Of a stretch of DNA of 26,304 nucleotides, positions 1,981 to 26,304 are shown piece after piece; position 1 is the stretch's first letter, and the number at the start of each line of letters is the position of its first letter. Below the pieces are notes generated by a model. The model did no database searches, had not been told where the DNA came from, and saw only the letters and a list, made by a program, of their open reading frames with translations. Source of the stretch: a bacterium (GTDB taxonomy: Bacteria; SAR324; NAC60-12); NCBI GenBank assembly GCA_965233585.1, contig CBDDTI010000023.1, positions 1 to 26,304 of the forward strand, given 5' to 3'. Both the position numbers and the translations under genes were made by a program.

Positions 1981-2362
1981 AAATAGGAAACCTGTAGGAA
2001 GGGTTGCTTGTTGTGACTCACGGACGGCAGAGCGAATCCACTGATGGACCGACAGGTGGTTGGAGTTGTATTTTCTGGAGTGATTGCAATGGTTGCAGTT
2101 GTCACGTCACCACAACTGCTGGATGTAGTGTGGTGTAGTTGTAGGTGTAGTTGTGGCTGTAGTGGCGTTGTAGTTGTAAGTTGTAAGTTGTAGTTGTGAT
2201 GTAGTAAATTAGTGTAGTTGCAGTTGTAGTTGTGGTGTGGTGTAATTAGTTTGTAGTGTATTGTAGTTACAGTGCAGTATCGTACAGTGCTGCAATGTAG
2301 TGGTAGTTGCAGTTGTAGTGTAATGTAATATAATGTAATTAGTGTATTTGGTAGTTGTAGCT
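1981..2362 (-). repeat. Interspersed repeat fragment: ~140-bp complex segment attached to an (ACTACA/ACTAC)n-type low-complexity array
   Basis: 2125-2362 is a GTAGTT/GTAGT/GTAAT array (seen directly). The adjoining 1981-2124 segment (minus strand ...ccaaccacctgtcggtccatcagtggattcgctctgcc...) resembles a repeat terminus recalled from Symbiodiniaceae genomes (not verified). Confidence 0.6.
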
Positions 2363-2394
2363 ATTTGTTTGTTTGTTCGCTTAGCTGCAAGCAT

Positions 2395-3686
2395 AAAAAC
2401 AAAACTATTTTGCGAAATTTAATTTACTGATATTAAAAATTTAATAATTTTATAAAATATTTTTTATTTTTAATTTAATTATATGTTTTAAAATTTTTTT
2501 TTAATTTTTGAATTAATAAAAACAAAAAGGATGTAATTTTACATTTTTTTTAGGAAATAAATAATTAAATAAAAAATTAATGGTTATATTTTAATATATT
2601 TTGAAATATATTTATTTATCTAAAATATTATATTTATTATAAAAAAATAATACAAAATTATACAATAATTATATTAATTAGATAATAACTAATTTGAGAA
2701 TATATAGGAATCTATTTTTTTTGTTATTAATATGAAAATTATATATTATAAATATATTATAAATAAACGATAAAAATAATAATATTAATATATAATATTA
2801 TATATTTTTATATATTTAAATATTATAGTTTAAAATTTTATTGAAAATAATATAAATAATTATTTAAAAAAATAAAAATATTATGTTAAATTTTAAATAA
2901 AAATAATAATAAATAAATATAATATTTAAGAAATTTACCAAAAAAAAAATATATATATATATAAATATATAAATAAAAATATTATATATAAATAAATAAA
3001 ATATAAAAAGGAAAACATATATACACATATATATATATACAAAAAGGAAGGCATTTACACGCTTATATATACACAAACATAGACATAACGTAGTTATAAT
3101 TGAAATAGGAATTGAATCTTGAGTATTATATATTTTCGTTATTCTGATTGTTTTATATATATAAATATATATATATGTTTTATATGTAGATATTTTTATA
3201 TATAGATCCTTTTATATATAGATATTTGATATAAATATTCGTTTATATATAAAAATGTATATAATAATATATAATAAAAAGTTATATTCGTTTAATTTAG
3301 ATTAATAATAAAAATCGAATTATATACATATACTAAATAGGTAATTTAGGAATATATTTTTTATTAAATAAAAACCCCCATATAGGCAAACCTGTCATAA
3401 CAAAAAAACGATATAAAAATATATAAAATTATTAAAATTTTATTATTTTGACCATAATTAATTTTATAAATGTAGATGTAACCCTAGACCGTTCCTAGAA
3501 TTTCCCCCTATTGAAAAATATATAATATTATTGACATATGCGATTATTTCTTGATTATATTTTTTGGTGGAATATATAATGCATTTTTATTTATTTTTAT
3601 AAAAAAATCAGGAATTTTATTTAATATAGGTCAGGATAATAAACCTGTTTTTTTTCCTTTTTTCTTAAAATAATTATATATATGTT
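2395..3686. other. Extremely AT-rich low-complexity tract (degraded repeat or low-quality consensus)
   Basis: Almost exclusively A/T with (TA)n patches and an abrupt onset after the GTAGTT array; no periodic unit and no credible ORF. Confidence 0.8.
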
Positions 3687-4770
3687 ATCGCGATCGTGAC
3701 CCATACTTCGAAACCGAAGCTACGCTGACAGAAACCAAAATAAAATAATATATATACGTCGGGGAACCCAGATACCAAGCACAAAACCTCAGAGGAATTC
3801 TTTTATCCGGCCACCTATACTCACACACTGGCAAAGAAATTTTGTCTTTGAATATCCATATCTGACCAGAACAAAGACATACTGCTGACTTAAATGAGAA
3901 TCCCCAAAAATTACCCTGGTATGTTGGGATGTCAGGATCAACCAATGTGTAATTTAATTTCTTCAGCAAAATGAAATAAAAAATATTACATATTGTTTGC
4001 TATATAATATCCAAAAAAAATATATGACATGATGCGAATTCCAATCTTAACTGAAATTTGCCTGCAGGGAGACAAAAAGCTTGTGCAAAAATTATGGTCG
4101 ACTTGGCCGTCTGAATATAATGAGCTTTGGGGGTCTTGGAACCACGTTATTGAAGTGTGTGAACAACGCATTGCGCTTGAAAACAGGACATCCAAGAACC
4201 AAAGGCTGACCGAGTGGCGTACCAGAATGCGCCAGTGCGCAATTTTTTTGGCAATCTGCATCAAAATTACAATAAGGTAACGAGAAAACAAATATTCTTG
4301 CAGAATCATGGTACCGCATCTTTTTGATTTAATAGCGTTTCTTTATTATCCTGCCTTGTGTCCCCTCCTCTTTCTCTCATTTTGTTTTTTGAATATTTTT
4401 GTTTGTTTGATTGGAATTTTTTTCAATGTCGACCACTTGGCACCCTTGTATCTTGTTTCATTTTAAAATTTTTTTAATTTGTGTTTTTTTGTGGCTGAAA
4501 ACACCTACCTACGTTTTACATAAAAAACCATTCAAGTGGGACAAACGGTTGGGTAAAATTTTTTCTAGATGTTCATTAGTCTAATTAATTTTTTTATTGC
4601 TTTGTCTTTCCTTTTCTTTCTTTTGGCACTCTTTCAAAGTGTGCGTTGTTTCTGTCTTCTTTTTTCTTGAAGTTTTCCCAACTCTTGTTTCCGCAGGAGT
4701 TATTATGGAATGAACGACTGGATGCCTCAAATACCCGAAGGTATCGGACACGGCAGCCAACGGGACATGA

Positions 4771-7246
4771 TCAATTCATGTTTTTACGTACAGTGGCCCT
4801 GACCCGGGCCATGTGGTGAAGAACCGCTCTATTATAGGCATCACACCGACGTGTGGGCCAAGCAAGACGATTTTGCAATTCATTTTCAGGGACCTCAGGG
4901 CGGTCGGAAGACAACTGTTCGGCGGAGCAATGCCAGGAGAGATGCCCCCAGATACGTGGGATTTGCTCATCGCAAAAGAAACATTGTTCCCTTACTTCGT
5001 GTCCACGCATCTTATTATAGCATTCCGTGGATGCGCAGAACCAAGCATTACGGCCATTTGATGTCTATCACACGTGAAAGAGAACAACTTGCGGCATCGG
5101 AAACACGACTTTCCTCATACGGCACATCAAGCAAAGAAGGCCTATCATGGCCGCTCTGCTTTTTCGAAAGGGCAAATTGCACTCGCCGCCAACTTTCTTT
5201 CACCTTGTGCTCGGTGAATTTCACGACCCAAATCCACATGTGCAAACATCCATGGACCGCAAAATTTCCAGTTCAGCTCTCGCATGCGTGCGCAAATGAA
5301 ACAGTGCCAACCTCCAGGTCGTGGCATCCTTCGCCAAGGGGCACGAACTTGGCGCATGGTCCGAATGGAAGACATGGTGGCCCAAAACTCAGCATGATAC
5401 ATATGACTCACGAGCATGCCATGCCTGTCGAAACGAAGCATCTGTAACTGCGGCAATCGTTCAAACCAATCGCCCCATGTGGTGAGTGAAATGATTCTGG
5501 ACCTGTACAACGATATCCTGATATCGCGGGCAACCGGCAATTTCTGCAAACGGTGAGCGGCAAACACTGCTTCTTGCAAACGGTTCTCATCTCAAGTAAA
5601 GGGGAACAATAAAGACGATCATTTTCCGTAAAGTTAATACCTAAGACCCGAGTGGCCGGTCGGAGACACTCACAGAACTCTGCGTCATTGATCTCTTGCT
5701 TTGGTAGCGCAGTGCCGGCAATAAAACGCATTTTTGAACATTTCACGGAGACCCAAAGTGGCACTCCAGCTGCGCCATCTATGGATGCGAACATTGCGCA
5801 CGCTCAAAGCGCGATCATAAACATATGCACCCTGACACAAGTCTGGAATGGAAGACACATCAGGAAGAGGCCCAATGAGCAACCTGACAAGAGGCGGGGG
5901 TGCAATGGCATCAACTTGCGGCATGGAGGTCTGGACATGCTCCGGCGTTGGGTGCACAGCTTTCCCCAAGCAAAGCCATCGCACAGGATGACCCATATGA
6001 ACATCAAAATGTTAGCCCACTCATCTGGCAACCCTTGCAGTTGCATGTTTTCAATGGGCAAACCTGGGTGGACAAAATCAAAACATTTGGAGAAATCTAA
6101 AGAAGCAAGAACTTTTTGGTTTTCAAACGCTTTATTGAGGCCGAAACCCCTGGATTTCAGGCTCTATGGCACTGCTCGGAGACCCGAGACGCAATCCATT
6201 CCTGAACCCTGTGGGGTCCAAGATGAGGAAACTAACCGTAGAAAAATGCTTGCAACTGCAATAGGCCGCAAAGACCCTACAGTCCCACCGCCTTCCTTTC
6301 TTAAATGAACCTGACAAACCTGCAGCCATGCCTGTGGGACTGTTATAACTGAAACCAATGCAAACCAAATCATGGTAGTTGTCCCAAGCAACACGCGGGA
6401 GATGGCAAACTTCGCTACCGGACCAACCGTCAAACCGGGCCAGAGCGGCCTGATGGATAAGGGCAATCAGTTTGGGGTCCATCAAGCCAAGGCTTCCATT
6501 GTTCTAAATTCTGGGGTAAGTGTGGAACGAGAACATCACGTTTCCAAAGACGCTGCCAAAAGAACAAATAACAATCAAGGGTTTGCGTGATCGTGAGCAA
6601 GAATCTTCGAATCAGAGCGTACTGTTGGAGGTTTGCGAGGCTTCACCCACCGGTCACCTCTGAGCCCCCCGATCATGTCGTGGATGTGACGAAAAGAAAT
6701 GTTTTCACAGAGAGTAATACTTGCGCACAGAAACGCTGTTACACACAAACACTTTATTCAAGTTTACCCACAGAAAATTCACAAATACAAATGAAATTTC
6801 GAGGTGAAGTTAATCCAGAGAACTTGTAGCATTCAACTGTCAAGCAAGCAAAAACGCACTGGGCGTCACGCACGCAGCGATTCGGATCGTTCTGCAGAAA
6901 ATGTATCTCCTGTCCGCTGTTTTTGTTCAAAAACCACCTTTTCAAGCAAACAGGATGGAAACAGAGACGCTTATTCCCGCAAACATATAGAAGCTAAAGA
7001 AAAGAGAAAAGCTTTTGAACACAGAAACTCAGAGCTACAAATTTTTTCAAACTAACACTTTGAATGAGACAGAGGAAAATAAGAAAAACGTGTATTTTTT
7101 CGGAAAAAGCGGACGAAAATATTTTGTTTCTTGTGGCGACATGAATATTGCGGCGATTTAGAAACATCTGCCATCCGCAACAAGAACAATTTTTTTCCTT
7201 CGAGTGGAATGAAAACAGGGTCTAACGTTGTGTCCAAGAAAATTTG
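4771..7246 (-). pseudogene. Degenerate non-LTR retrotransposon (LINE-like) ORF2: RT domain, thumb and C-terminal CCHC knuckle, with several frameshifts (array unit 1 plus the native 3' end)
   Basis: Minus-strand motifs in canonical order across frames: DGWSGSEV..LP (region 0), PQAWLQVCQVHLRK..LRPIAVASIFLRLVSS (RT1-2), LASLDFSKCFDFVHP (RT3), SMPQVDAIAP (RT4, PQG changed to PQV), GAYVYDRAL (RT5, YxDD mutated, 5814-5825), WSATLGL (RT6), RVLGINF (RT7), then CFFCDEQIPRIWGHLSWHC (Cx2Cx9Hx4C) and a stop at 4771. Confidence 0.9.
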
Positions 7247-7487
7247 GTCTATCACACGTGAGAGAGAAGAACTTGCGCCATCGGAAACACGACTTTCCTC
7301 ATACGGCACATCAAGCAAAAAAGGCCTATCATGGCCGCTCTGCTTTTTCGAAAGGGCAAATTGTACTCGCCGCCAACTTTCTTTCACCTTGTGCTCGGTG
7401 AATTTCACGACCCAAATCCACATGTGCAAACACCCATGGATCGCAAAATTCCCAGTTCAGCTCTCGCATGCGTGCGCAAATGAAACA

Positions 7488-8796
7488 CTAGGGAGGCCCT
7501 TTTGAGCGAAGCTGGTTTTGAGAAGGTTTTCCAGACCCAGAATTGGGTCCGTCGGAGCAAGCAGTTTTGTAGATGATTTTTTAGCTTTTTTTAAAACCTC
7601 GTAAACAATGCTTTTAAAGCTCCAAGAGACGCGGTGAACGTAGGAGGTACGAGTGGCTAACGGACGTGGTGACGAACGTAAGGCGAACGAGTGAACGGAC
7701 GAGTGCACGTGTGAGCGAACGAGTGAACGGACGTGTGCGTACAAGTGGACGGACGTGTGCGCGTACGTGCGTGCGTTTGCACGTTCACTGGCCGCGCGCG
7801 CGCGCACGTACGAAAATAAGGTCGACTGGAGTCGACCTTATTTCTGTACGTGCAAAGCGCTACAATACTAAATCAATACTAAAGAGGCAGGGTCGTGCAA
7901 AAATAAGGTCGACTTGAGTCGACCTTATTTTTGCGTACGTGCGCGCGCGCGTGGCGAGTGACCGTGCAAACGCACGGACGTACGCTCACATTTTCGCTCG
8001 CACGTACGCTCACTCGTACATACATACGGTCGCACGTACGTTCACTCGCACGCATGTCGTTCACACACACGTTCATACCCCCGTTCATGTCACTCGTCAC
8101 TACACGTACGCTAGATAAAAATATTTTTACGAGACTTTAAAAAAAACTAAATGATTTTGTTTCTTGTTGTGGCAAGCGGGGTGCATATCGGTTGCTGCTT
8201 GAACCCACTTGAAGTTAGCTTCTTATTATTTCGTTGCGTCTGGTGGCTTGATTGTTTGCTGCTAAAAGAAGGCGCATCAGCCTTTTGCAGCCTTAGGTGA
8301 TTGCTTGAAGTGTTTCTTGCCGTTGAGGAGTTTGTGGGTTTTCGCGCAGGTGGTCGGCTTCCATTTGATTGATTGTATTGAATACTTTACTGCCCCTTGT
8401 CGGCCCCCCTTGCCCCTGTAGACTCCTACCGAAGTTTTTAGCCCAGAAAGAACATGAATCATGATCTTTTCAGTCAATCCCGTTATTAATTAATAGTATT
8501 AATTTAAAACGGGATGGAGTAGGAATCTGCTTAGGAAAATATGTGGCAAGGTGACGTATTGAAGGCTTTCTTACTCCGCCATCGTTTCGATATCGTATCA
8601 ATTACATTGGGTAATTGAATTAAAACATAGCACGGAGTAGTGGAGTAGCGCGGAGTAGCGAAGGATTGGTGAATGTTGCCTGGGTGGTGCTGCATCGCAA
8701 ATCGCCACATCTGATACCACATGTGCGCTTTCAGGTTCCATTTCTGGGGCCGGAAAGTCAAAAGAAATCAGGCTTCGCATGTGCGGGCCTCCTCTG
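7488..8796. mobile_element. Module A1: non-autonomous element with imperfect bipartite terminal inverted repeats
   Basis: Left end ctag-GGAGGCCC-ttttga-GCGAAGC; reverse complement of the right end caga-GGAGGCCC-gcacat-GCGAAGC. No recognisable ORF. Confidence 0.75.
7581..8150. mobile_element. Foldback MITE (570 bp) nested in A1, 8-bp TSD ATGATTTT
   Basis: ATGATTTT at 7573-7580 and 8151-8158; ~25-bp imperfect TIR ttagctttttttaaaacctcgtaaa / tttacgagactttaaaaaaaactaa; internal 52-bp inverted arms 7761-7812 and 7934-7985 (4 mismatches). Confidence 0.85.
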
Positions 8797-9121
8797 TTCC
8801 AACTCTATATGCTGGTTGCTTAAATAAACGCAGTTGTAATTTTTTGTTTGTTGCAGGGGTCGGCCTTTGGTGTGGATTTTGCGATTTTGCGGTGTCATTT
8901 TTGGTACCGCCAGACGGTCCCAAAAATGGGACCGTGAAAGTGCTTTTCTTTTGTTCTTTTACTAAGCTGCGCATGTGGTCCCAAAAATGGGACCGCCAGG
9001 CGGTCCCATTTTTGGGACCGTGTTTAGGTTCATGTTTTTCAAGTTTTTTGTATCAGGGTTGCAGAAGTGCAATGTTTTGGTTTCCTTGTAACTTTGTGGC
9101 TTATGGCGACCGGACGGGCAA
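8797..9121. other. Spacer B: non-coding segment with four GGTCCCA-N4-TGGGACC-type palindromes
   Basis: Copies at 8889-8910 (degenerate), 8915-8934, 8977-8994 and 9002-9019; the last two together form a perfect 21-bp-arm palindrome 8977-9019 centred on 8998. Confidence 0.85.
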
Positions 9122-10401
9122 CTAGGGAGGCCCTTTTGAGCGAAGCTGGTTTTGAGAAGGTTTTCCAGACCCAGAATTGGGTCCGTCGGAGCAAGCAGTT
9201 TTGTAGATGATTTTTTAGCTTTTTTTAAAGCCTCGTAAACAATGCTTTTAAAGCTCCGAAAGACGCGGTGAACGTAGGGGGTACGAGTGGCTAACGGACG
9301 TGGTGACGAACGTAAGGCGAACGAGTGAACGGACGAGTGCACGTGTGAGCGAACGAGTGAACGGACGTGTGCGTACAAGTGGACGGACGTGTGCGCGTAC
9401 GTGCGTGCGTTTGTACGTTCACTGGCCGCGCGCGCGCGCACGTACGAAAATCTGTACGTGCAAAGCGCTACAATACTAAATCAATACTAAAGAGGCAGGG
9501 TCGTGCAAAAATAAGGTCGACTCAAGTCGACCTTATTTTCGTACGTGCGCGCGCGCGTGGCGAGTGACCGTGCAAACGCACGGACGTACGCTCACATTTT
9601 CGCTCGCACGTACGCTCACTCGTACATACAGTCGCACGTACGTTCACTCGCACGCATGTCGTTCGCACACACGTTCATACCCCCGTTCATGTCACTCGTC
9701 ACTACACGTACGCTAGATAACAAAAATATTTTTACGAGACTTTAAAAAAAGCTAAATGATTTTGTTTCTTGTTGTGGCAAGCGGAGTGCATATCGGTTGC
9801 TGCTTGAACCCACTTGAAGTTAGCTTCTTATTATTTCGTTGCGTCTGGTGGCTTGATTGTTTGCTGCTAAAATAAGGCGCATCAGCCTTTTGCAGCCTTA
9901 GGTGATTGCTTGAAGTGTTTCTTGCCGTTGAGGAGTTTGTGGGTTTTCGCGCAGGTGGCCGGCTTCCATTTGATTGATTGTATTGAATACTTTACTGCCC
10001 CTTGTCGGCCCCCCTTGCCCCTCTAGACTCCTACCGAAGTTTTCAGCCCAGAAAGAACATGAATCATGATCTTTTCAGTCAATCCCGTTATTAATTAATA
10101 GTATTAATTTAAAACGGGATGGAGTAGGAATCTGCTTAGGAAAATATGTGGCAAGGTGACGTATTGAAGGCTTTCTTACTCCGCCATCGTTTCGATATCG
10201 TGTCAATTACATTGGGTAATTGAATTAAAACATAGCACGGAGTAGCGGAGTAGCGCGGAGTAGCGAAGGATTGGTGAATGTTGCCTGGGTGGTGCTGCAT
10301 CGCAAATCGCCACATCTGATACCACATGTGCGCTTTCAGGTTCCATTTCTGGGGCCGGAAAGTCAAGTGAAATCAGGCTTCGCATGTGCGGGCCTCCTCT
10401 G
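9122..10401. mobile_element. Module A2: second direct copy of A (1280 bp)
   Basis: Collinear with 7488-8796 and with the same termini; net 29 bp shorter, with all the indels I found lying inside the nested MITE, plus scattered substitutions. Confidence 0.8.
9215..9755. mobile_element. Foldback MITE (541 bp) nested in A2, 8-bp TSD ATGATTTT
   Basis: ATGATTTT at 9207-9214 and 9756-9763; TIR ttagctttttttaaagcctcgtaaa vs tttacgagactttaaaaaaagctaa (24/25 match). Confidence 0.87.
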
Positions 10402-12352
10402 CAGTGCCAGCCTCCAGGTCGTGGCATTCTTCGCCAAGGGGCACGAACTTGGCGCATGGTCCGAATGGAAGACATGGTGGCCCAACCTCAGCATGATACA
10501 TATGACTCACGAGCATGCCATGCCTGTCGACACGAAGCATCTGTAACTGCGGCAATCGTTCACACCAAGCGCCCCATGTGGCGAGTTAAATGATTCTGGG
10601 CCTGTACAACGACATCCTGATATCGCGGGCAACCGGCAATTTCTGCAAACGGTGAGCGGCAAACACTGCTTCTTGCAAACGGTTCTCATCTCAAGTAAAG
10701 GGGAATAATAAAGACATTTTCCTCAAAGTCAATACCTAAGACCCGAGTGGCCGGTCGGAGACACTCACAGAACTCTGCGTCATTGATTTCCTGCTTTCGT
10801 AGCGCAGTGCCGGCAATAAAACGCATTTTTGAACATTTCACAGAGACCCAAAGTGGCACGCCAGCTGCGCCATCTATGGATGCGAACATTGCGCACGCTC
10901 AAAGCGCGATCATAATCGTATGCACCCTGATGCAAGTCTGGAATGGAAGACACATCATGAAGAGGCCCAATGAGCAACCTGACAAGAGCCGGGGTGCAAT
11001 GGCATCAACTTGCGGCATGTAGGTCTGGACATGCTCCGGCGTTGGGTGCACAGCTTTCCCCAAGCACAGCCATCGCACATGATGACCCCATACGAACATC
11101 AAAATGTTAGCCCACTCATCTGGCAACCCTTGCAGTTGCATGTTTTCAATGGGCAAACTGGGTGGACAAAATGAAAACATTTGGAGAAATCTAAAGAAGC
11201 AAGAACTTTTTGGTTTTCAAACGCTTTATTGAGTTGCCTCCATGCCGAAACCCCGGATTTCAGGCCTCTATGGCACTGCTCGGAGACCCGAGATGCATTC
11301 CATTCCTGAACCCTGTGGGGTCCAAGATGAGGAAACTAACCGTAGAAAAATGCTTGCAACTGCAATAGGCCGCAAAGACCCTAAAGTCCCACCTTGTTTC
11401 TTTCTTAAATGAACCTGACGTGCCTGCAGCCATGCCTGTTGGATTGTTATAACTGAGACCAATGCAAAACCAAATCACGGTAGTCATCCCAAGCAACAAG
11501 CGGGAGATGGCAAACTTCGCTACCGGACCAACTGTCACATCCGGCCAGAGCGGCCTGATGGATGAAGGCAATCAGTTTGGGGTCCATCCAGCCAAGGCTT
11601 CCATTGTTTTAAATTCTGGGGTAAGTGTGGAACGAGAACATCACGTTTCCAAAGACGCTGCCAAAAGAACAAATAACAATCAAGGGTGTGCGTGATCGTG
11701 GAGCAAGAATCTTCGAATCAGAGCGTGCTGTTGGAGGTTTGTGAGGCTTCACCTACCGGTCAACTCTGTGCCCCCCGATCATGTCATGGATGTGACGAAA
11801 AGAAACGTTATTCACAGAGAGTAATACTTGTGCACAGAAACGCTGTTACACACAAACACTTTATTCAAGTTTACCCACAGAAAATTCACACATAAAAATG
11901 AAATTTCCGGGTGAAGTTAATCCAGAGAACTTGTAGCATTCAACTGTCAAGCAAGCAAAAATGCACTGGGCGTCACGAACGCAGCGATTCGGATCATTCT
12001 GCAGAAAATGTATCTCCTGTCTGCTGTTTTTGTTTCAAAAACCACCTTTTCAAGCAAACAGGATGGAAACAGAGACGCTTATTCCCGCAAACATAGAAGC
12101 TAAAGAAAAGAGAAAAGCTTTTGAACACAGAAACTCAGAGCTACAAAGTTTTTCAAACTAACACTTTGAATGAGACAGAGGAAAATAAGAAAAACGTGTA
12201 TTTTTTTGGCAAAAGCGGACGAAAATATTTTGTTTCTTGTGGTAACATGAATATTGCGGCGATTTAGAAACATCTGCCATCGGCAACAAGAACAATTTTT
12301 TTCCTTCGAGTGGAATGAAAACAGGGTCTAACATTGTGTCCAAGAAAATTTG

Positions 12353-14497
12353 GTCTATCACACGTGAGAGAGAAGAACTTGCGCCATCGGAAACACGACT
12401 TTCCTCATACGGCACATCAAGCAAAAAAGGCCTATCATGGCCGCTCTGCTTTTTCGAAAGGGCAAATTGCACTCGCCGCCAACTTTCTTTCACCTTGTGC
12501 TCGGTGAATTTCATGACCCAAATCCACATCTGCAAACACCCATGGATCGCAAAATTCCCAGTTCAGCTCTCGCATGCGTGCGCAAATGAAACAGTGCCAG
12601 CCTCCAGGTCGTGGCATTCTTCGCCAAGGGGCACGAACTTGGCGCATGGTCCGAATGGAAGACATGGTGGCCCAAACTCAGCATGATACATATGACTCAC
12701 GAGCATGCCATGCCTTTCGACACGAAGCATCTGTAACTGCGGCAATCGTTCACACCAAGCGCCCCATGTGGCGTGTGAAATGATTCTGGGCCTGTACAAC
12801 GACATCCTGATATCGCGGGCAACCGGCAATTTCTGCAAACGGTGAGCGGCAAACACTTCTTCTTGCAAACGGTTCTCATCTCAAGTAAAGGGGAATAATA
12901 AAGACATTTTCCTCAAAGTCAATACCTAAGACCCGAGTGGCCGGTCGGAGACACTCACATAACTCTGCGTCATTGATTTCCTGCTTTCGTAGCGCAGTGC
13001 CGGCAATAAAACGCATTTTTGAACATTTCACAGAGACCCAAAGTGGCACGCCAGCTGCGCCATCTATGGATGCGAACATTGCGCACGCTCAAAGCGCGAT
13101 CATAATCGTATGCACCCTGACGCAAGTCTGGAATGGAAGACACATCATGAAGAGGCCCAATGAGCAACCTGACAAGAGCCGGGGTGCAATGGCATCAACT
13201 TGCGGCATGTAGGTCTGGACATGCTCCGGCGTTGGGTGCACAGCTTTCCCCAAGCACAGCCATCGCACATGATGACCCCATACGAACATCAAAATGTTAG
13301 CCCACTGATCTGGCAACCCTTGCAGTTTTATGTTTTCAATAGGCAAACTGGGTGGACAAAATGAAAACATTTGGAGAAATCTAAAGAAGCAAGAACTTTT
13401 TGGTTTTCAAACGCTTTATTGAGTTGCCTCCATGCCGAAACCCCGGATTTCAGGCCTCTATGGCACTGCTCGGAGACCCGAGATGCATTCCATTCCTGAA
13501 CCCTGTGGGGTCCAAGATGAGGAAACTAACCGTAGAAAAATGCTTGCAACTGCAATAAATAGGCCGCAAAGACCCTACAGTCCCACCGTGTTTCTTTCTT
13601 AAATGAACCTGACGTGCCTGCAGCCATGCCTGTGGGATTGTTATAACTGAGACCAATGCAAAACCAAATCACGGTAGTCATCCCAAGCAACAAGCGGGAG
13701 ATGGCAAACTTCGCTACCGGACCAACTGTCACATCCGGCCAGAGCGGCCTGATGGATGAAGGCAATCAGTTTGGGGTCCATCCAGCCAAGGCTTCCATTG
13801 TTTTAAATTCTGGGGTAAGTGTGGAACGAGAACATCACGTTTCCAAAGACGCTGCCAAAAGAACAAATAACAATCAAGGGTGTGCGTGATCGTGGAGCAA
13901 GAATCTTCGAATCAGAGCGTGCTGTTGGAGGTTTGTGAGGCTTCACCTACCGGTCACCTCTGTGCCCCCCGATCATGTCATGGATGTGACGAAAAGAAAC
14001 GTTATTCACAGAGAGTAATACTTGTGCAGAATGCACATACAAATGAAATTTCCGGGTGAAGTTAATCCAGAGAACTTGTAGCATTCAACTGTCAAGCAAG
14101 CAAAAATGCACTGGGCGTCACGAACGCAGCGATTCGGATCATTCTGCAGAAAATGTATCTCCTGTCTGCTGTTTTTGTTTCAAAAACCACCTTTTCAAGC
14201 AAACAGGATGGAAACAGAGACGCTTATTCCCGCAAACATAGAAGCTAAAGAAAAGAGAAAAGCTTTTGAACACAGAAACTCAGAGCTACAAATTTTTTCA
14301 AACTAACACTTTGAATGAGACAGAGGAAAATAAGAAAAACGTGTATTTTTTTGGCAAAAGGGGACGAAAATATTTTGTTTCTTGTGGTAACATGAATATT
14401 GCGGCGATTTAGAAACATCTGCCATCGTCAACAAGAACAATTTTTTTCCTTCGAGTGGAATGAAAACAGGGTCTAACATTGTGTCCAAGAAAATTTG
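12353..14497 (-). pseudogene. Array unit 3: degenerate LINE RT fragment (net 49-bp deletion near 14028; 4-bp insertion near 13555)
   Basis: Same motifs; period 2145 bp. Confidence 0.88.
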
Positions 14498-16686
14498 GTC
14501 TATCACACGTGAGAGAGAAGAACTTGCGCCATCGGAAACACGACTTTCCTCATACGGCACATCAAGCAAAAAAGGCCTATCATGGCCGCTCTGCTTTTTC
14601 GAAAGGGCAAATTGCACTCGCCGCCAACTTTCTTTCACCTTGTGCTCGGTGCATTTCATGACCCAAATCCACATCTGCAAACACCCATGGATCGCAAAAT
14701 TCCCAGTTCAGCTCTCGCATGCCTGCGCAAATGAAACAGTGCCAGCCTCCAGGTCGTGGCATTCTTCGCCAAGGGGCACGAACTTGGCGCATGGTCCGAA
14801 TGGAAGACATGGTGGCCCAAACTCAGCATGATACATATGACTCACGAGCATGCCATGCCTTTCGACACGAAGCATCTGTAACTGCGGCAATCGTTCACAC
14901 CAAGCGCCCCATGTGGCGAGTGAAATGATTCTGGGCCTGTACAACGACATCCTGATATCGCGGGCAACCGGCAATTTCTGCAAACGGTGAGCGGCAAACA
15001 CTGCTTCTTGCAAACGGTTCTCATCTCAAGTAAAGGGGAATAATAAAGACATTTTCCTCAAAGTCAATACCTAAGACCCGAGTGGCCGGTCGGAGACACT
15101 CACAGAACTCTGCGTCATTGATTTCCTGCTTTCGTAGCGCAGTGCCGGCAATAAAACACATTTTTGAACATTTCACAGAGACCCAAAGTGGCACGCCAGC
15201 TGCGCCATCTATGGATGCGAACATTGCGCACGCTCAAAGCGCGATCATAATCGTATGCACCCTGACGCAAGTCTGGAATGGAAGACACATCATGAAGAGG
15301 CCCAATGAGCAACCTGACAAGAGCCGGGGTGCAATGGCATCAACTTGCGGCATGTAGGTCTGGACATGCTCCGGCGTTGGGTGCACAGCTTTCCCCAAGC
15401 ACAGCCATCGCACATGATGACCCCATACGAACATCAAAATGTTAGCCCACTGATCTGGCAACCCTTGCAGTTGCATGTTTTCAATAGGCAAACTGGGTGG
15501 ACAAAATGAAAACATTTGGAGAAATCTAAAGAAGCAAGAACTTTTTGGTTTTCAAACGCTTTATTGAGTTGCCTCCATGCCGAAACCCCGGATTTCAGGC
15601 CTCTATGGCACTGCTCGGAGACCCGAGATGCATTCCATTCCTGAACCCTGTGGGGTCCAAGATGAGGAAACTAACCGTAGAAAAATGCTTGCAACTGCAA
15701 TAGGCCGCAAAGACCCTACAGTCCCACCTTGTTTCTTTCTTAAATGAACCTGACGTGCCTGCAGCCATGCCTGTGGGATTGTTATAACTGAGACCAATGC
15801 AAAACCAAATCACGGTAGTCACCCCAAGCAACAAGCGGGAGATGGCAAACTTCGCTACCGGACCAACTGTCACATCCGGCCAGAGCGGCCTGATGGATGA
15901 AGGCAATCAGTTTGGGGTCCATCCAGCCAAGGCTTCCATTGTTTTAAATTCTGGGGTAAGTGTGGAACGAGAACATCACGTTTCCAAAGACGCTGCCAAA
16001 AGAACAAATAACAATCAAGGGTGTGCGTGATCGTGGAGCAAGAATCTTCGAATCAGAGCGTGCTGTTGGAGGTTTGTGAGGCTTCACCTACCGGTCACCT
16101 CTGTGCCCCCCGATCATGTCGTGGATGTGACGAAAAGAAACGTTATTCACAGAGAGTAATACTTGTGCACAGAAACGCTGTTACACACAAACACTTTATT
16201 CAAGTTTACCCACAGAAAATTCACACATACAAATGAAATTTCCGGGTGAAGTTAATCCAGAGAACTTGTAGCATTCAACTGTCAAGCAAGCAAAAATGCA
16301 CTGGGCGTCACGAACGCAGCAATTCGGATCATTCTGCAGAAAATGTATCTCCTGTCCGCTGTTTTTGTTTCAAAAACCACCTTTTCAAGCAAACAGGATG
16401 GAAACAGAGACGCTTATTCCCGCAAACATAGAAGCTAAAGAAAAGAGAAAAGCTTTTGAACACAGAACTCAGAGCTACAAATTTTTTCAAACTAACACTT
16501 TGAATAAGACAGAGGAAAATAAGAAAAACGTGTATTTTTTCGGCAAAAGCGGACGAAAATATTTTGTTTCTTGTGGTAACATGAATATTGCGGCGATTTA
16601 GAAACATCTGCCATCGGCAACAAGAACAATTTTTTTCCTTCGAGTGGAATGAAAACAGGGTCTAACGTTGTGTCCAAGAAAATTTG
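14498..16686 (-). pseudogene. Array unit 4: degenerate LINE RT fragment
   Basis: Same motifs, e.g. CHRGLKSGVSAWRQLNKAFENQKVLASLDFSKCF read on the minus strand at about 15511-15610. Confidence 0.88.
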
Positions 16687-18875
16687 GTCTATCACACGTG
16701 AGAGAGAAGAACTTGCGCCATCGGAAACACGACTTTCCTCATACGGCACATCAAGCAAAAAAGGCCTATCATGGCCGCTCTGCTTTTTCGAAAGGGCAAA
16801 TTGCACTCGCCGCCAACTTTCTTTCACCTTGTGCTCGGTGAATTTCATGACCCAAATCCACATCTGCAAACACCCATGGATCGCAAAATTCCCAGTTCAG
16901 CTCTCGCATGCGTGCGCAAATGAAACAGTGCCAGCCTCCAGGTCGTGGCATTCTTCGCCAAGGGGCACGAACTTGTCGCATGGTCCGAATGAAAGACATG
17001 GTGGCCAAAACTTAGCATGATACATATGACTTACGAGCATGCCATGCCTGTCGACACGAAGCATCTGTAACTGCGGCAATCGTTTACACCAAGCGCCTTA
17101 TGTGGCGAGTGAAATAATTCCGGGCCTGTACAACGACATCCTGATATCGCGGGCAACCGGCAATTTCTGCAAACGGTAAGCGGCAAACACTGCTTCTTGC
17201 AAACGGTTCTCATCTCAAGTAAAGGGGAACAATAAAGACATTTTCCTCAAAGTCAATACCTAAGACCCGAGTGGCCGGTCGGAGACACTCACAGAACTCT
17301 GCGTCATTGATTTCCTGCTTTCGTAGCGCAGTGCCGGCAATAAAACGCATTTTTGAACATTTCACAGAGACCCAAAGTGGCACGCCAGCTGCGCCATCTA
17401 TGGATGCAAACATTGCGCACGCTCAAAGCGCGATCATAATCGTATGCACCCTGACGCAAGTCTGGAATGGAAGACACATCATGAAGAGGCCCAATGAGCA
17501 ACCTGACAAGAGCCGGGGTGCAATGGCATCAACTTGCGGCATGGAGGTCTGGACATGCTCCGGCGTTGGGTGCACAGCTTTCCCCAAGCACAGCCATCGC
17601 ACATGATGACCCCATACGAACATCAAAATGTTAGCCCACTCATCTGGCAACCCTTGCAGTTGCATGTTTTCAATAGGCAAACTGGGTGGACAAAATAAAA
17701 ACATTTGGAGAAATCTAAAGAAGCAAGAACTTTTTGGTTTTCAAACGCTTTATTGAGTTGCCTCCATGCCGAAACCCCGGATTTCAGGCCTCTATGGCGC
17801 TGCTCGGAGACCCGAGATGCATTCCATTCCTGAACCCTGTGGGGTCCAAGATGAGGAAACTAAAGTAGAAAAATGCTTGCAACTGCAATAGGCCGCAAAG
17901 ACCCTACAGTCCCACCTTGTTTCTTTCTTAAATGAACCTGACGTGCCTGCAGCCATGCCTGTGGGATTGTTATAACTGAGACCAATGCAAAACCAAATCA
18001 CGGTAGTCACCCCAAGCAACAAGCGGGAGATGGCAAACTTCGCTACCGGACCAACTGTCACATCCGGCCAGAGCGGCCTGATGGATGAAGGCAATCAGTT
18101 TGGGGTCCATCCAGCCAAGGCTTCCATTGTTTTAAATTCTGGGGTAAGTGTGGAACGAGGTCATCACGTTTCCAAAGACGCTGCCAAAAGAACAAATAAC
18201 AGTCAAGGGTGTGCGTGATCGTGGAGCAAGAATCTTCGAATCAGAGCGTGCTGTTGGAGGTTTGTGAGGCTTCACCTACCGGTCACCTCTGTGCCCCCCG
18301 ATCATGTCGTGGATGTGACGAAAAGAAACGTTATTCACAGAGAGTAATGCTTGTGCACAGAAACGCTGTTACACACAAACACTTTATTCAAGTTTACCCA
18401 CAGAAAATTCACACATACAAATGAAATTTCTGGGTGAAGTTAACCCAGAGAACTTGTAGCATTCAACTGTCAAGCAAGCAAAAACGCACTGGGCGTCACG
18501 AACGCAGCGATTCGGATCATTCTGCAGAAAATGTATCTCCTGTCCGCTGTTTTTGTTTCAAAAACCACCTTTTAAAGCAAACAGGATGGAAACAGAGACG
18601 CTTATTCCCGCAAACATAGAAGCTAAAGAAAAGAGAAAAGCTTTTGAACACAGAAACTCAGAGCTACAAATTTTTTCAAACTAACACTTTGAATGAGACA
18701 GAGGAAAATAAGAAAAACGTGTATTTTTTCGGCAAAAGCGGACGAAAATATTTTGTTTCTTGTGGCAACATGAATATTGCGGCGATTTAGAAACATCTGC
18801 CATCCGCAACAAAAACAATTTTTTTCCTTCGAATGGAATGAAAACAGGGTCTAACATTGTGTCCAAGAAAATTTG
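16687..18875 (-). pseudogene. Array unit 5: degenerate LINE RT fragment
   Basis: Same motifs (SMPQVDAIAP, GAYDYDRAL, RVLGIDF). Confidence 0.88.
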
Positions 18876-21063
18876 ATCTATCACACGTGAGAGAGAAGAA
18901 CTTGCGCCATCGGAAACACGACTTTCCTCATACGGCACATCAAGCAAAAAAGGCCTATCATGGCCGCTCTGCTTTTTCGAAAGGGCAAATTGCACTCGCC
19001 GCCAACTTTCTTTCACCTTGTGCTCGGTAAATTTCACGACCCAAATCCACATGTGCAAACACCCATGGATCGCAAAATTCCCAGTTCAGCTCTCGCATGC
19101 GTGCGCAAATGAAACAGTGCCAACCTCCAGGTCGTGGCATTCTTCGCCAAGGGGCACGAACTTGTCGCATGGTCCGAATGGAAGACATGGTGGCCAAAAC
19201 TTAGCATGATACATATGACTCACGAGCATGCCATGCCTGTCGACACGAAGCATCTGTAACTGCGGCAATCGTTTACACCAAGCGCCTTATGTGGCGAGTG
19301 AAATAATTCCGGGCCTGTACAACGACATCCTGATATCGCGGGCAACCGGCAATTTCTGCAAACGGTAAGCGGCAAACACTGCTTCTTGCAAACGGTTCTC
19401 ATCTCAAGTAAAGGGGAACAATAAAGACATTTTCCTCAAAGTCAATACCTAAGACCCGAGTGGCCGGTCGGAGACTCTCACAGAACTCTGCGTCATTGAT
19501 TTCCTGCTTTCGTAGCGCAGTGCCGGCAATAAAACGCATTTTTGAACATTTCACAGAGACCCAAAGTGGCACGCCAGCTGCGCCATCTATGGATGCGAAC
19601 ATTGCGCACGCTCAAAGCGCGATCATAATCGTATGCACCCTGACGCAAGTCTGGAACGGAAGACACATCATGAAGAGGCCCAATGAGCAACCTAACAAGA
19701 GCCGGGGTGCAATGGCATCAACTTGCGGCATGTAGGTCTGGACATGCTCCGGCGTTGGGTGCACAGCTTTCCCCAAGCATAGCCATCGCACATGATGACC
19801 CCATACGAACATCAAATGTTAGCCCACTCATCTGGCAACCCTTGCAGTTGCATGTTTTCAATGGGCAAACTGGGTGGACAAAATGAAAACATTTGGAGAA
19901 ATCTAAAGAAGCAAGAACTTTTTGGTTTTCAAACGCTTTATTGAGTTGCCTCCATGCCGAAACCCCGGATTTCAGGCCTCTATGGCACTGCTTGGAGACC
20001 CGAGATCCATTCCATTCCTGAACCCTGTGGGGTCCAAGATGAGGAAACTAACCGTAGAAAAATGCTTGCAACTGCAATTGGCCGCAAAGACCCTACAGTC
20101 CCACCGTGTTTCTTTCTTAAATGAACCTGACGTGCCTGCAGCCATGCCTGTGGGATTGTTATAACTGAGACCAATGCAAAACCAAATCACGGTAGTCATC
20201 CCAAGCAACAAGCGGGAGATGGCAAACTTCGCTACCGGACCAACTGTCACATCCGGCCAGAGCGGCCTGATGGATGAAGGCAATCAGTTTGGGGTCCATC
20301 CAGCCAAGGCTTCCATTGTTTTAAATTCTGGGGTAAGTGTGAAACGAGGTCATCACGTTTCCAAAGACGCTGCCAAAAGAACAAATAACAATCAAGGGTG
20401 TGCGTGATCGTGGAGCAAGAATCTTCGAATCAGAGCGTGCTGTTGGAGGTTTGTGAGGCTTCACCTACCGGTCACCTCTGTGCCCCCCGATCATGTCGTG
20501 GATGTGACGAAAAGAAACGTTATTCACAGAGAGTAATGCTTGTGCACAGAAACGCTGTTATACACAAACACTTTATTCAAGTTTACCCACAGAAAATTCA
20601 CACATACAAATGAAATTTCCGGGTGAAGTTAATCCAGAGAACTTGTAGCATTCAACTGTCAAGCAAGCAAAAACGCACTGGGCGTCACGAACGCAGCGAT
20701 TCGGATCGTTCTGCAGAAAATATATCTCCTGTCCGCTGTTTTTGTTTCAAAAACCACCTTTTCAAGCAAACAGGATGGAAACAGAGACGCTTATTCCCGC
20801 AAACATAGAAGCTAAAGAAAAGAGAAAAGCTTTTAGACACAGAAACATAGAGCTACAATTTTTTCAAACTAACACTTTGAATGAGACAGAGAAAAATAAA
20901 AAAAGTGTATTTTTCGGCAAAAGCGGACGAAAATATTTTGTTTCTTGTAGCGACATGAATATTACGGCGATTTAGAAACATCTGCCATTGGCAACAAGAA
21001 CAATTTTTTTCCTTCGAGTGGAATGAAAACAGGGTCTAACATTGTATCCAAGAAAATTTGGTC
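18876..21063 (-). pseudogene. Array unit 6 (terminal): degenerate LINE RT fragment
   Basis: Same motifs; ends aaatttggtc and then diverges into gtgacattaaag. Confidence 0.88.
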
Positions 21064-23745: not shown

Positions 23746-24778
23746 ATGTGGTTAGGGTTGGTGGTGGTTGTGGTGTTGGTGTTGGTGGTAGTGTTTCTGG
23801 TGTTGTTGGTGTGGTTGGGTTTGTTGGTGGTGTTGGTGTTGTTGGTCGTGTTGTTGGTGTTGGTATTGTTTGTGTTCCTGTTGTTGTCGTTGTTGTTGTT
23901 GCTGTTGTTGCTGCTGCTGATGGTGTTGTTGTTGTTGTTGCTGTTGCTGCTGATGGTGTTGTTGTTGTTGTGTGTTGTTGTGTTGTTGTGTGTTGTTGTG
24001 TGTTGTTGTGTGTTGTTGTGTGTTGTTGTGTGTTCTTGTGTGTGTTGTGGTGTGTTGTGGTGTGTTGTGGTGTGTTGTTGTGTGTTGTTTGTGTTGTTGT
24101 GTGTGTTGTTGTGTGTTGTTGTGTGTTGTTGTGTGTTGTTGTGTTGTTGTGTTGTTGTGTGTTGCGTGTGTTGTTGTGTCTTGTTGTGTGTTGTGGTGTG
24201 TTGTTGTGTGTTGTGTGTGTTGTGTGTGTTGTGTGTGTTGTGTGTGTTGTGTGTGCGTGTGTGTTGCGTGTGTTGTGTGTGTTGTGAGTGTTGCGTGTGT
24301 TGTGTGTGTTGTGTGTGTGTGTTGTGTGTGTTGTTGTGTGTTGTTGTGTGTTGTTGTTGTTATTGTTGTCATTGTCGTTGTAGTTGTTGTGGTTGTTGTG
24401 GTTGTTGTGGTTGTTGTGTGTTGTTGTGTGTTGTGGTGTGTTGTTGTGCGTTGTGGTGTGTTGTTGTGTGTTGTGTGTGTTGTGTGTGTGTGTTGTGTGT
24501 GTTGTGTGTGCGTGTGTGTTGTGTGTGTGTGTGTTGTGTGTGTTGCGTGTGTTGCGTGTGTTGTGTGTGTTGTGTGTGTTGTATGTGTGTTGTGTGTGTG
24601 CTGTGTGTGTTGTGTGTTGTGTGTGTTGTGTGTTTTGTGTGTTTTGTGTGTTTTGTGTGTTGTGTGTTGTGCGTTGTGCGTTGTGCGTTGTGTGTTGGTG
24701 TTGTTGTTGTTGGTGTTGTTGTTGTCGTCGTTGTTGTTGTTGTTGCTGTTGGTGTTGTTGTTGTTGGTGTTGGTGTTA
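23746..24778 (+). repeat. Compound GT-rich microsatellite (GTT, GTGTT, GTGTGTT, GGT units)
   Basis: About 1 kb of almost only G and T; it explains the stop-free V/C/L and T/H/Q ORFs in several frames. Confidence 0.96.
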
Positions 24779-25240
24779 TCCCTGCAGCGTTTTTGCTCGG
24801 TTCCGTAGTGGCCGAAAATCGTCAAATCGGTGGTGTTTTCCCGTGTTTTTGCAACTCTCGGAGCAAAAAACACCGTAAATACCAATGTTTTTGGCGGGTC
24901 GGAAGCCCAACCAAAACCACGGTATTTACGATGTTTTTTGCCTCTGGTAGTAAAAAGCACGGTATTTACAGTGTTTTTTGGCCAGCACCTGGCAAAAACA
25001 CTGGTATTTACGGAGGTTTCACCATGTAGCAAAATGTAGTTTCTTGATCCGAAAAGAACAAAAATACTGTAAATTACAATGTTTTGAGTCTCCTCTTAGG
25101 GTGCGTGGGAGGTGTGGAGGGGGGGGGAGTGGGGGGGGTACTAAAATGACTAGCAATCTCCTGAAGAATCAGGTAACGGGGCTGGCCGCCCTCCCCTTTA
25201 CTTCGTAAAGTAAAACTCAAGGTAGCTTTCGTGATTTATA
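24779..25240. repeat. Interspersed repeat segment with ~40-bp-spaced GGTATTTAC motifs
   Basis: GGTATTTAC at 24921, 24961 and 25003, inverted at 24875; related aaaatactgtaaattacaatgtttt at 25061; short hairpin ctttac-ttc-gtaaag near 25196-25210. Confidence 0.65.
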
Positions 25241-25447
25241 TTCGGAAATTAGAACAAAATAATGTGAATTCCCGTGACGGCGCCCCTACAATCCACCCTC
25301 CGATCATTGCGTCTATAAGCGTCAGCGGATGCTTCGATGGCGTCATTGAGTATATTGGCTGGGTTGGCGACTGATTTGTTTTTTCGTACCCTTGTGCGCA
25401 AGTCTATGGTCGAAAGCAAGCAACCTGCAATACACGTCGCAGATATC

Positions 25448-25596
25448 TTGCCCGCTCTCAAACCTTCCAAACCCTTCCGCAGGCCTTTCGACGGAAACTC
25501 TCACCGCAGTCATCTATTGGTTTGTCCGCCCCTCAAACCCTCCAAACCCTCCCGTAGGCCTTTCCCAGCAACTCCCGCCACACGCCGCAGCCATCT
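25448..25596 (+). repeat. Diverged 74-bp tandem duplication
   Basis: ttgcccgctctcaaaccttccaaacccttccgcaggcctttc (25448) vs ttgtccgcccctcaaaccctccaaaccctcccgtaggcctttc (25522); both end in cgcag(t/c)catct. Confidence 0.8.
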
Positions 25597-25882
25597 GTTT
25601 TTTAGGACGTTCAAGCCTGCCGTTCATGGGCTTTCTGTTCTGACACGTGTTATTTCGTTTTCTTGCATGGTTTCCCAGCGACCCTCCCCGAACGAACGGG
25701 ATGACCCCACAACAATTTGATATACCGGGCACGAGTGGGCATGGCGCCGCCCCATTTTGGTGGTACTTAAACTCTCCCCGTTGTAAAATAGGCACATGTA
25801 AACCCTTGAAGCTTAAATGCCAAATTTAATTAATTAAGCCCTTGGAATCCAAATGTATACGGTCTATGCGCATTCCTTCCTC

Positions 25883-26304
25883 CCCCTTCAAAAGGGGTCG
25901 GCGGCACCAGGGCGTTAGCCCATTCCGGCGATGCCGTCGGTGGTGGCAACTAAACATAGCTTTAGCTACCCGGGGGCGCGCAGTGCCGCCGACCTTTTTG
26001 GTGCTGGGGTTTTCACATTTTTCGGGTCTAGGGTGGACAAAAAGAGGGTGAAATTTGAAGATGCGTTTTGGAAGTCCTAAAATCGGAAAAAAATGCCGTT
26101 TTGACACATTTTTCGGACGATGTTGTTTCGCTTTTCGGAAGTCACAAAATGTTGTAAATTACAACATTTTTGCGTTTTAACGTCGTAGCCACTTTCGGGG
26201 ACTAAAACTGTGGTATTTACACGGGTTCTTGCCATCTCACAGCGCAAAATGCTGTAAATTACAACACTTTGTGCGCATAGGCATAGGCCAACATAGCCCC
26301 AAGC
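25883..26304. repeat. Start of another element of the GTAAATTAC/GGTATTTAC family, with a terminal stem-loop; runs off the window
   Basis: 12-bp perfect inverted repeat ggtcggcggcac (25896-25907) / gtgccgccgacc (25983-25994); perfect palindrome aaaatgttgtaa-a-ttacaacatttt (26146-26170); GGTATTTAC at 26212. Confidence 0.55.

Follow-up and report, generated by a model that had tools for sequence, protein, structure and literature searches.

The window analyzed here is a stretch of 26,304 nucleotides that makes up the whole of contig C23 in a 12-Mb assembly of 747 contigs. At positions 8891–9019 it contains a cluster of nested hairpins, and the question raised by this locus is what such a cluster is and how it came to lie where it does. 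An initial annotation had considered an origin-like array, a protein-binding array, or the core of a foldback element. We find a protein-binding array to be the best of these readings, as far as can be judged from sequence: with a probability of roughly 0.6, the cluster represents the signature palindromic motif of a DDE_1 transposon family, probably a binding site for the transposase, in a non-coding derivative that has expanded into a satellite. Modules and larger segments are given on the forward (+) strand, and the palindromic features have no strand.

The motif GGTCCCA-W4-TGGGACC has three exact matches in the window, with a shuffle expectation of 0.05. The initial annotation had described two pairs of GGTCCCA-AAAA-TGGGACC hairpins, and the copies starting at 8916, 8977, and 9002 are indeed exact, but the first hairpin of the upstream pair (8891–8908, GGTGTCA-TTTT-TGGTACC) is a degenerate copy with three mismatches, in which five of the seven stem pairs are Watson–Crick pairs. 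The linkers were described correctly: GCCAGAC (8909–8915) precedes the exact 18-bp palindrome with an A loop at 8916–8933, as read directly from the sequence, and GCCAGGC joins the downstream pair. The two pairs are separated by a spacer of 43 nt (8934–8976). Direct reading also bears out that the downstream pair, consisting of an A-loop motif (8977–8994), the linker, and a T-loop motif (9002–9019), forms a perfect palindrome of 43 nt (8977–9019), in which a single A at the center separates two arms of 21 nt. The symmetry proposed for the cluster as a whole exists at the level of loop order (T,A..A,T), but this is a mirror order and not reverse-complement symmetry.

According to computed folds, the 43-mer as single-stranded DNA forms one 20-bp hairpin (−25.1 kcal/mol, z −9.9) that accounts for 87% of the ensemble. 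Since a lone 18-mer hairpin reaches only −6.9 kcal/mol, the long hairpin is predicted to dominate; the twin-hairpin form that had been put forward as an alternative fold is possible but much weaker. In a fold of 150 nt around the cluster, two independent hairpins are formed, and the motif pairs do not pair with each other.

The exact 18-mer is found at 190 sites in the assembly, which disposes of the possibility, raised at the outset, that the motif is single-copy. These sites are confined to three contigs, with 3 sites in C23, 42 in C24, and 145 in C195, and nearly always form the same triplet, with spacings of +61 and +25, within a module of ~324–330 bp that we call S (8794–9123 in the window). 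In front of S lies segment H (about 8148–8796), the last ~65–100 nt of which constitute an arm, T*, that appears to be an inverted copy of T and carries a motif variant at 8734–8751. S is followed by arm T (about 9121–9214), which carries the motif variant AGACCCA-GAAT-TGGGTCC at 9167–9184 and is homologous to the right arm of a transposase gene locus, L022, discussed below. Positions 8148–9214 of the window correspond to exactly one copy of a ~1.07-kb tandem unit, ordered H, S (one to three copies), and T, which fills C195 (41 kb) and C24 (12 kb). The head-to-tail joints 9123 to 8806 and 9206 to 8151 are also present in public sequencing runs, the latter in contigs from three runs. In one DNA run, the summed contig depth of the unit was ~1.0–2.3 million, compared with 3,600–12,900 for the flanks of the foldback copies described later, i.e. 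~100–400 times higher. None of seven ORFs in the unit and ten ORFs in the window matched Pfam. Head-to-tail arrays, high copy number, and non-coding sequence are the properties of a satellite.

Two observations on variation in the unit may be recorded here. The whole of C24 consists of a satellite variant with a period of 1656 bp, in which S is present twice and H is longer by ~250 bp, the additional sequence lying near window position 8670. Insertions and loose ends were also seen at 8700–8710 in the reads of other samples.

C23 and the sister contigs C24, C195, and C307 are eukaryotic DNA that contaminates a bacterial bin, and neither the window nor these contigs should be taken as bacterial features. 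This conclusion follows from the public runs that hold the unit, which come from 10 studies and carry coral metagenome labels or coded organism names, from the paucity of ORFs in the assembly (in 589 of the 747 contigs, or 6.0 Mb, long ORFs cover less than 30% of the length, and a few long contigs are gene-dense), and from the window itself, in which no convincing gene was found. The host of the satellite and the transposon is most likely a eukaryote of the coral holobiont, namely a dinoflagellate symbiont (Symbiodiniaceae). A 21-nt dinoflagellate spliced-leader motif had no match in the assembly at up to two mismatches, a result that is uninformative on the host either way. Only nine contigs (184 kb), including C23, C24, and C195, have a G+C content of at least 43.5%, so the satellite may derive from another eukaryote than most of the contaminating contigs.

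Relatives of the block were sought by scanning with the double-hairpin pattern, which gave no loci in a collection of genome contigs and 20 loci in metagenome contigs. Eighteen of the latter are S or the whole unit, at 77–97% identity. The other two, L022 and L025, are 96% alike and contain a transposase gene; what they have in common with the satellite is the hairpin region only. This gene contains two 43-nt palindromes at a distance of ~41 nt, and the part downstream of them encodes a DDE_1 domain (PF03184, E 4e-8; the transposase DDE_1 matches range from 4e-8 to 4e-10). The N-terminal part gave weak matches to HTH_Tnp_Tc5 that are below the cut-off (E 0.028 and 0.2), a signal that a pogo/Tc5-type protein would fit. 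A tblastn search of the present assembly with the L025 and L022 ORFs as queries found no transposase homologue, and gene-bearing loci and satellite never occurred together on one contig among the loci examined.

In the gene, the spacer between the motif pairs is ~40–42 nt, both in L022/L025 and in a more distant relative, L041 (43 nt in the window), and the loop order is A,T..A,T. Compared with the T,A..A,T order of the window, this is a true higher-order inverted repeat; in L022, the two pairs are mutually inverted, with 46-nt arms that are 89% identical. The suggestion that the cluster is the core of a foldback element is in part borne out by the transposase genes, which carry the block as a small foldback module.

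In total, 69 related proteins were found, and the named ones come only from Symbiodiniaceae: Effrenium voratum and Durusdinium trenchii, with Breviolum minutum in the P0029 cluster. The read-through prediction P0070 aligns with the full-length protein P0023 on either side of residues 208–298, which are encoded by the palindromes and have no counterpart in P0023. In L025, frame-restoring GT...AG borders of the intron-like insert can be read by eye. The predicted proteins P0002, P0003, and P0089 begin in the palindromes or read through them, which indicates that many genomic copies carry the block.

The gene in L022 is bracketed by inverted arms (972–998 and 3178–3204), and these arms align with the end of S plus T in the window. 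The alignment score is 39 for T (shuffle maximum, 26) and 44 for T* in reverse complement (shuffle maximum, 28). Taken by itself, the inverted repeat formed by T and T* scores 41, which is within the shuffle range (maximum, 43). The left and right parts of S have no significant similarity to L022, and only the middle of S and the arms do. With a relaxed motif, GGNCCCA-N4-TGGGNCC with up to two mismatches, five copies were found in the window unit (T*, three in S, and T; shuffle mean, 0.01) and six in L022 (one in the left arm, four in the insert, and one in the right arm; shuffle mean, 0.19). The linker is also shared between arm and core, CCAGAC preceding the hairpin in T and GCCAGAC preceding the hairpin in S. 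In C307, the stretch 25150–26010, which comprises T and H, has three relaxed copies, two of which are the T and T* arm copies.

Two further relatives, L038 and L041, lie in another contaminated bacterial bin (G001), and only the 3′ arm of each is covered. In L038 (44% protein identity), the relaxed motif occurs three times: the 3′ arm has a single copy, and two more, spaced 64 nt apart, immediately precede the DDE exon. A repeat finder places all three, in intron and arm, in one family. In L041 (42% protein identity), two motif pairs ~42 nt apart precede the DDE exon and one copy is in the 3′ arm, and the motif has shifted to GGACCCC...GGGGTCC in both the internal block and the arm. The L041 block sits just before an acceptor-like ...TGTGCAG|G, and its two pairs can join in a stem of 34 bp that spans the insert. 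Because L038 and L041 retain this layout, the combination of an arm copy and a paired block in front of the catalytic exon is a trait of the family and not an accident of one lineage. The initial annotation had also allowed for the motif being no more than a known MITE's subterminal repeat. This comes close, since the motif does lie in subterminal arms, but they are the arms of a transposon family for which we found no description in the main texts of the literature, where the 18-mer likewise had no match.

A different short block beside the gene end is conserved between two loci: GCAAC, followed after 1–7 nt by GG(G)AGGCC, at 972–1002 and 3166–3204 of L022 and at 1300–1330 of L038. In both arms of L022 this end block has the form GCAAC...GGAGGCCC. 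Downstream of the gene in L041 (reverse strand), a looser version, ...GTGGAGGCC, is present, and GCAAC was not read there. The GCAAC/GG(G)AGGCC block may be a separate cleavage or binding site.

In the model that we favor, the block consists of four copies of the 18-bp palindromic motif, arranged as two head-to-head pairs with a 7-nt linker in each, and the motif is the signature of a DDE_1 (pogo/Tc5-like) family of DNA transposons in a eukaryote of the coral holobiont. Gene-bearing elements have one motif in each inverted arm and a double pair in an intron-like insert, which separates the DNA-binding part of the transposase gene from the catalytic part. The window has no counterpart of the gene but a 330-bp non-coding core, S, between arms of the same kind, T* and T. 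Since S occupies the place of the gene between the arms, it may be regarded as a gene-less derivative; its position and an 8-nt similarity at the ends point weakly to S being a deletion derivative of the gene region. T*-S-T, together with the ~540-bp rest of H, would then have been amplified head-to-tail to yield the very abundant satellite. The inverted TGGGACC half-sites would be bound by the transposase of the family, probably as a dimer and via the N-terminal helix-turn-helix region, and the internal block may be an extra binding platform that is regulatory or that aids pairing of the ends. It counts against this putative role that a palindromic motif would be equally expected if the function lay in a hairpin or cruciform.

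Transposase-binding repeats in other systems include the 12-bp motifs of En/Spm, which occur in direct and inverted pairs, the subterminal repeats of Ac, and the IR/DR sites of Tc1-like elements. The present motif resembles these in being short, subterminal, and repeated, partly in inverted pairs, and the repeats of those elements are bound by the element's own protein. It differs in that its copies are most densely clustered inside the element, within an intron-like insert, and in that each putative site is a 7+4+7 palindrome. If the motif is a transposase site, it would provide a simple pair of a protein and an 18-bp palindrome, and the satellite may titrate the transposase.

An alternative that we consider possible, though unlikely, is that the palindromes are passengers without any sequence-specific role, which arose through template switching or head-to-head duplication and owe their spread solely to the satellite and transposon that carry them. 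Much of what is seen in the arrays agrees with this. Among 80 aligned S copies, column agreement is mostly 95–100%, compared with 82–88% in the 43-mer region, where it is lowered by deletions. The perfect 43-nt palindrome has been kept in 57 of these copies and lost in 23, the hairpins showed no extra conservation across the 80 copies, and no other part of S is as prone to indels as the 43-mer. With conservation not above that of the flanks and the main indel hot spot located in the block, there is no sign of selection on the block in the satellite. The difference in loop order between the window and L025 also suits passenger palindromes. Such palindromes would not, however, be expected to recur as two pairs plus a spacer at the same place in the gene of a relative as distant as L041, to change alike in the arm and internal copies of that relative, or to be kept in the arms of three lineages. 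We retain the reading of the motif as a probable transposase site. Under this preferred reading, the block in the satellite is probably a passenger as well, and its main visible effect there would be the instability of a long palindrome.

A bolder extension of the binding-site reading, which we rate as rather unlikely, is that the block is a conserved cis-element of a dinoflagellate DDE_1 transposon lineage, in which the intron-borne end motif would act as a self-limiting decoy linking transposase binding to transcript processing or expression, with the satellite as a transposase sink. If so, hundreds or thousands of satellite copies would soak up the transposase.

We consider it improbable that the block works primarily at the RNA level, either as a mini inverted-repeat insert that acts as or defines an intron, or as the source of a ~20-bp hairpin RNA through which the transposon would be silenced by small RNAs. 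The gene-bearing loci lend themselves to such an interpretation: the insert is missing from the proteins of relatives, the GT...AG borders in L025 and the acceptor in L041 can be read by eye, the two pairs can form the 34-bp stem across the insert, and the 43-mer folded as RNA reaches −38.3 kcal/mol. In RNA libraries, contigs covering the unit are indeed present. Their unit-to-flank depth ratio is similar to that in the DNA run, however, so that the signal is explained by DNA carry-over, and these contigs give no evidence for transcription of the unit. At the gathering cut-off, there was no Rfam match; the matches below threshold were miRNA-like and far off, with 21–32 bits against cut-offs of 64–90, and the best-ranked of them had 28.8 bits against a cut-off of 89. 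An RNA-level role would also leave the motif copies in the arms unexplained. A precedent for foldable intron inserts is found in the dinoflagellate Amoebophrya, for which excerpts of one report describe introner elements, i.e. intron inserts with inverted repeats in which a hairpin bridges the intron (PMC7789003). The present insert is likewise foldable and intron-like, and the named relatives of the transposase are, broadly, from the group of organisms in which these introners occur. As far as those excerpts go, introners occur in many genes, whereas the present block was seen only in one transposase gene family (2 of the 20 loci) and in the satellite, with further copies of its motif in the element's arms (PMC7789003).

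Even less probable, to the point of being very improbable, is a structural DNA element, with replication starting at a cruciform or hairpin, or with such a structure being recognized by an HUH or hairpin-telomere system, perhaps on a circular form of the unit. The strong fold and the very high copy number would be in line with this, and the head-to-tail order is compatible with rolling-circle copying. The origin-like role named in the initial annotation finds no partner, however: the unit has no Rep or HUH gene and no Pfam-recognizable ORF, no initiator gene lies nearby, and the gene that is associated with the motif encodes a DDE_1 transposase. The units also vary in S copy number and in indels, as chromosomal arrays do. 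A Helitron, or HUH rolling-circle element, was considered and rejected, given that no 5′-TC...CTRR-3′ ends were seen by eye, that the hairpins are internal, and that the associated gene is of the DDE_1 type. The inverted terminal repeats of parvoviruses are T-shaped and occur in flip and flop forms. Like these, the present cluster has two small internal palindromes side by side, with a loop orientation that varies between copies. It lacks the outer stem of such repeats, the whole 43-mer being one palindrome, and it is internal, not terminal, and has no viral genes.

The surroundings of the unit in the window show how a piece of the satellite may have traveled. The unit lies in a host array, R (5056–21063), in which a tandem repeat of 2189 bp, unrelated to the satellite, is present in ~7.5 units. 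The R units are 92–100% alike and non-coding, with ORFs that have no Pfam match, and within the assembly they are found on this contig only. One R unit has been interrupted by a 2915-bp block with the structure T-FB-H-S-T-FB-H (7487–10401), flanked by a 2-bp duplication of CA. The insertion point is AAACA|GTGCC, a sequence that five other R units of the window have without interruption; a filled and an empty site, as sought for a MITE, were thus found for the T..H block and not for S alone. The block begins with a copy of T (T′, 7487–7580) and ends with a copy of H (H′, 9764–10401). At the T/H junction it contains a foldback copy, FB1 (7581–8150), between two copies of an 8-bp duplication, ATGATTTT (7573–7580 and 8151–8158). 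A second one, FB2 (9215–9755), lies at the same site with the same duplication (9207–9214 and 9756–9763). Positions 7487–8796 are repeated at 9121–10401 with 96% identity, as a 1634-bp tandem duplication. The T/H junction has no foldback copy in C195, C24, and C307, or in the public-run data, where loose ends occur at 8151 and 9214. The identical 8-bp duplication, located each time at one and the same position in the unit, and the uninterrupted junctions elsewhere indicate one foldback insertion that was later duplicated with the unit. In terms of our model, a 2.9-kb piece of the satellite would have landed in R and later received the foldback insertion.

The two similar modules flanking 8151–9214 had led the initial annotation to regard the region as a cargo spacer, but a composite foldback transposon that mobilizes the DNA between its modules is hardly tenable, given that the modules are direct copies, each with its own identical 8-bp duplication and both parts of the 1634-bp tandem duplication, and that T′ and H′, not the foldback copies, form the ends of the inserted block. 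The foldback element itself has inverted ends, TTAGC...GCTAA, and the depth of its flanks, in the thousands in the DNA run, suggests that it is repeated in the source genome. Regarding its structure, we observed that the element, which measures 540–570 bp, has the inverted ends TTAGCTTTTTTTAAAG and CTCGTAAA, internal sub-repeats of 20–22 bp, and a (CG)n core. It also has a small AAATAAGGTCGAC...GTCGACCTTATTT hairpin, of which there are two copies in FB1.

The ends of S and of the T..H block are less uniform than a single mode of movement would predict. Where S lies beside foreign DNA, the boundaries read TA|CTG...CTG|TA in both left junctions (2/2) and in four of five right junctions, and never on both sides of one copy. 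The only insertion for which an empty site was found duplicates CA, not TA. The two ends of S share only C-GTT-C. In the window as well as in C307 and L017, the T..H block has the ends CTAGGGAGG...CCTCCTCTG, and other recurrent ends are located in distal T at 9201–9214 (L016, L032, and L034) and near 8495–8512 (L021, L024, and L034). No direct repeats were found between the flanks of L022. These junctions are inconsistent with one simple cut-and-paste element. As a speculation, excision of neighboring S copies might free T..H or T..H-S-T..H fragments, which would then be captured elsewhere.

Satellites derived from transposons, and hairpin-forming intron inserts in a dinoflagellate, are already known, according to the portions of the literature drawn on here (PMC5932611, PMC7789003). 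In Drosophila, the Tc1-like element Bari1 and hobo have both been described as forming tandem arrays (McGurk and Barbash 2018, PMC5932611). Judging from excerpts of that report, these arrays are like the present one in that sequence related to a DNA transposon is repeated head-to-tail at high copy number, with the transposon ends kept. By comparison with what those excerpts describe, the present unit is a non-coding derivative joined to ~540 bp of other sequence, with one to three S modules, and its junctions do not fit simple end-to-end dimers (PMC5932611). Bivalve MITEs with tandem repeats, such as DTC84 of Donax trunculus, also have short tandem modules between transposon-like flanks, as composite repeats that connect mobile elements with satellite DNA (PMC3879986, in part). 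Relative to DTC84 as presented there, the internal module found here is a hairpin-pair block that the satellite has in common with a transposase gene, where it lies in the intron-like insert.

The locus connects elements that are usually described apart: a palindromic motif at transposon ends, an insert in a transposase gene that resembles an intron, and a satellite of very high abundance. Among its features, the one that may merit attention is the end motif copy located in the intron-like insert. Repeats of the coral holobiont, to which this satellite belongs and which in this case are probably from Symbiodiniaceae, are poorly catalogued.

Several minor observations concern other loci and the rest of the window. 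At C307:25210–25953 (in L037), T and H are present alone, without S or a foldback copy, among retroelement-like and recombinase-like ORFs, and the ends of this segment are the ends of the block inserted in the window. In L031 (200–1960), a 1.3-kb insert follows the end of S, and S is itself divided by a C307-like piece of ~200 bp, which separates the first hairpin from the 43-mer. Tandem repeats of 440 bp and 117 bp follow the 3′ arm of L038 (1768–3262). In the window itself, a tandem repeat of 21/7 bp lies at 636–1031, and positions 2000–4000 form a 2-kb stretch of 20–24% G+C that is full of AT microsatellites. On the far side of the R array, a 1-kb GT-rich microsatellite (23757–24777) gives rise to spurious ORFs of 426–427 residues on both strands.
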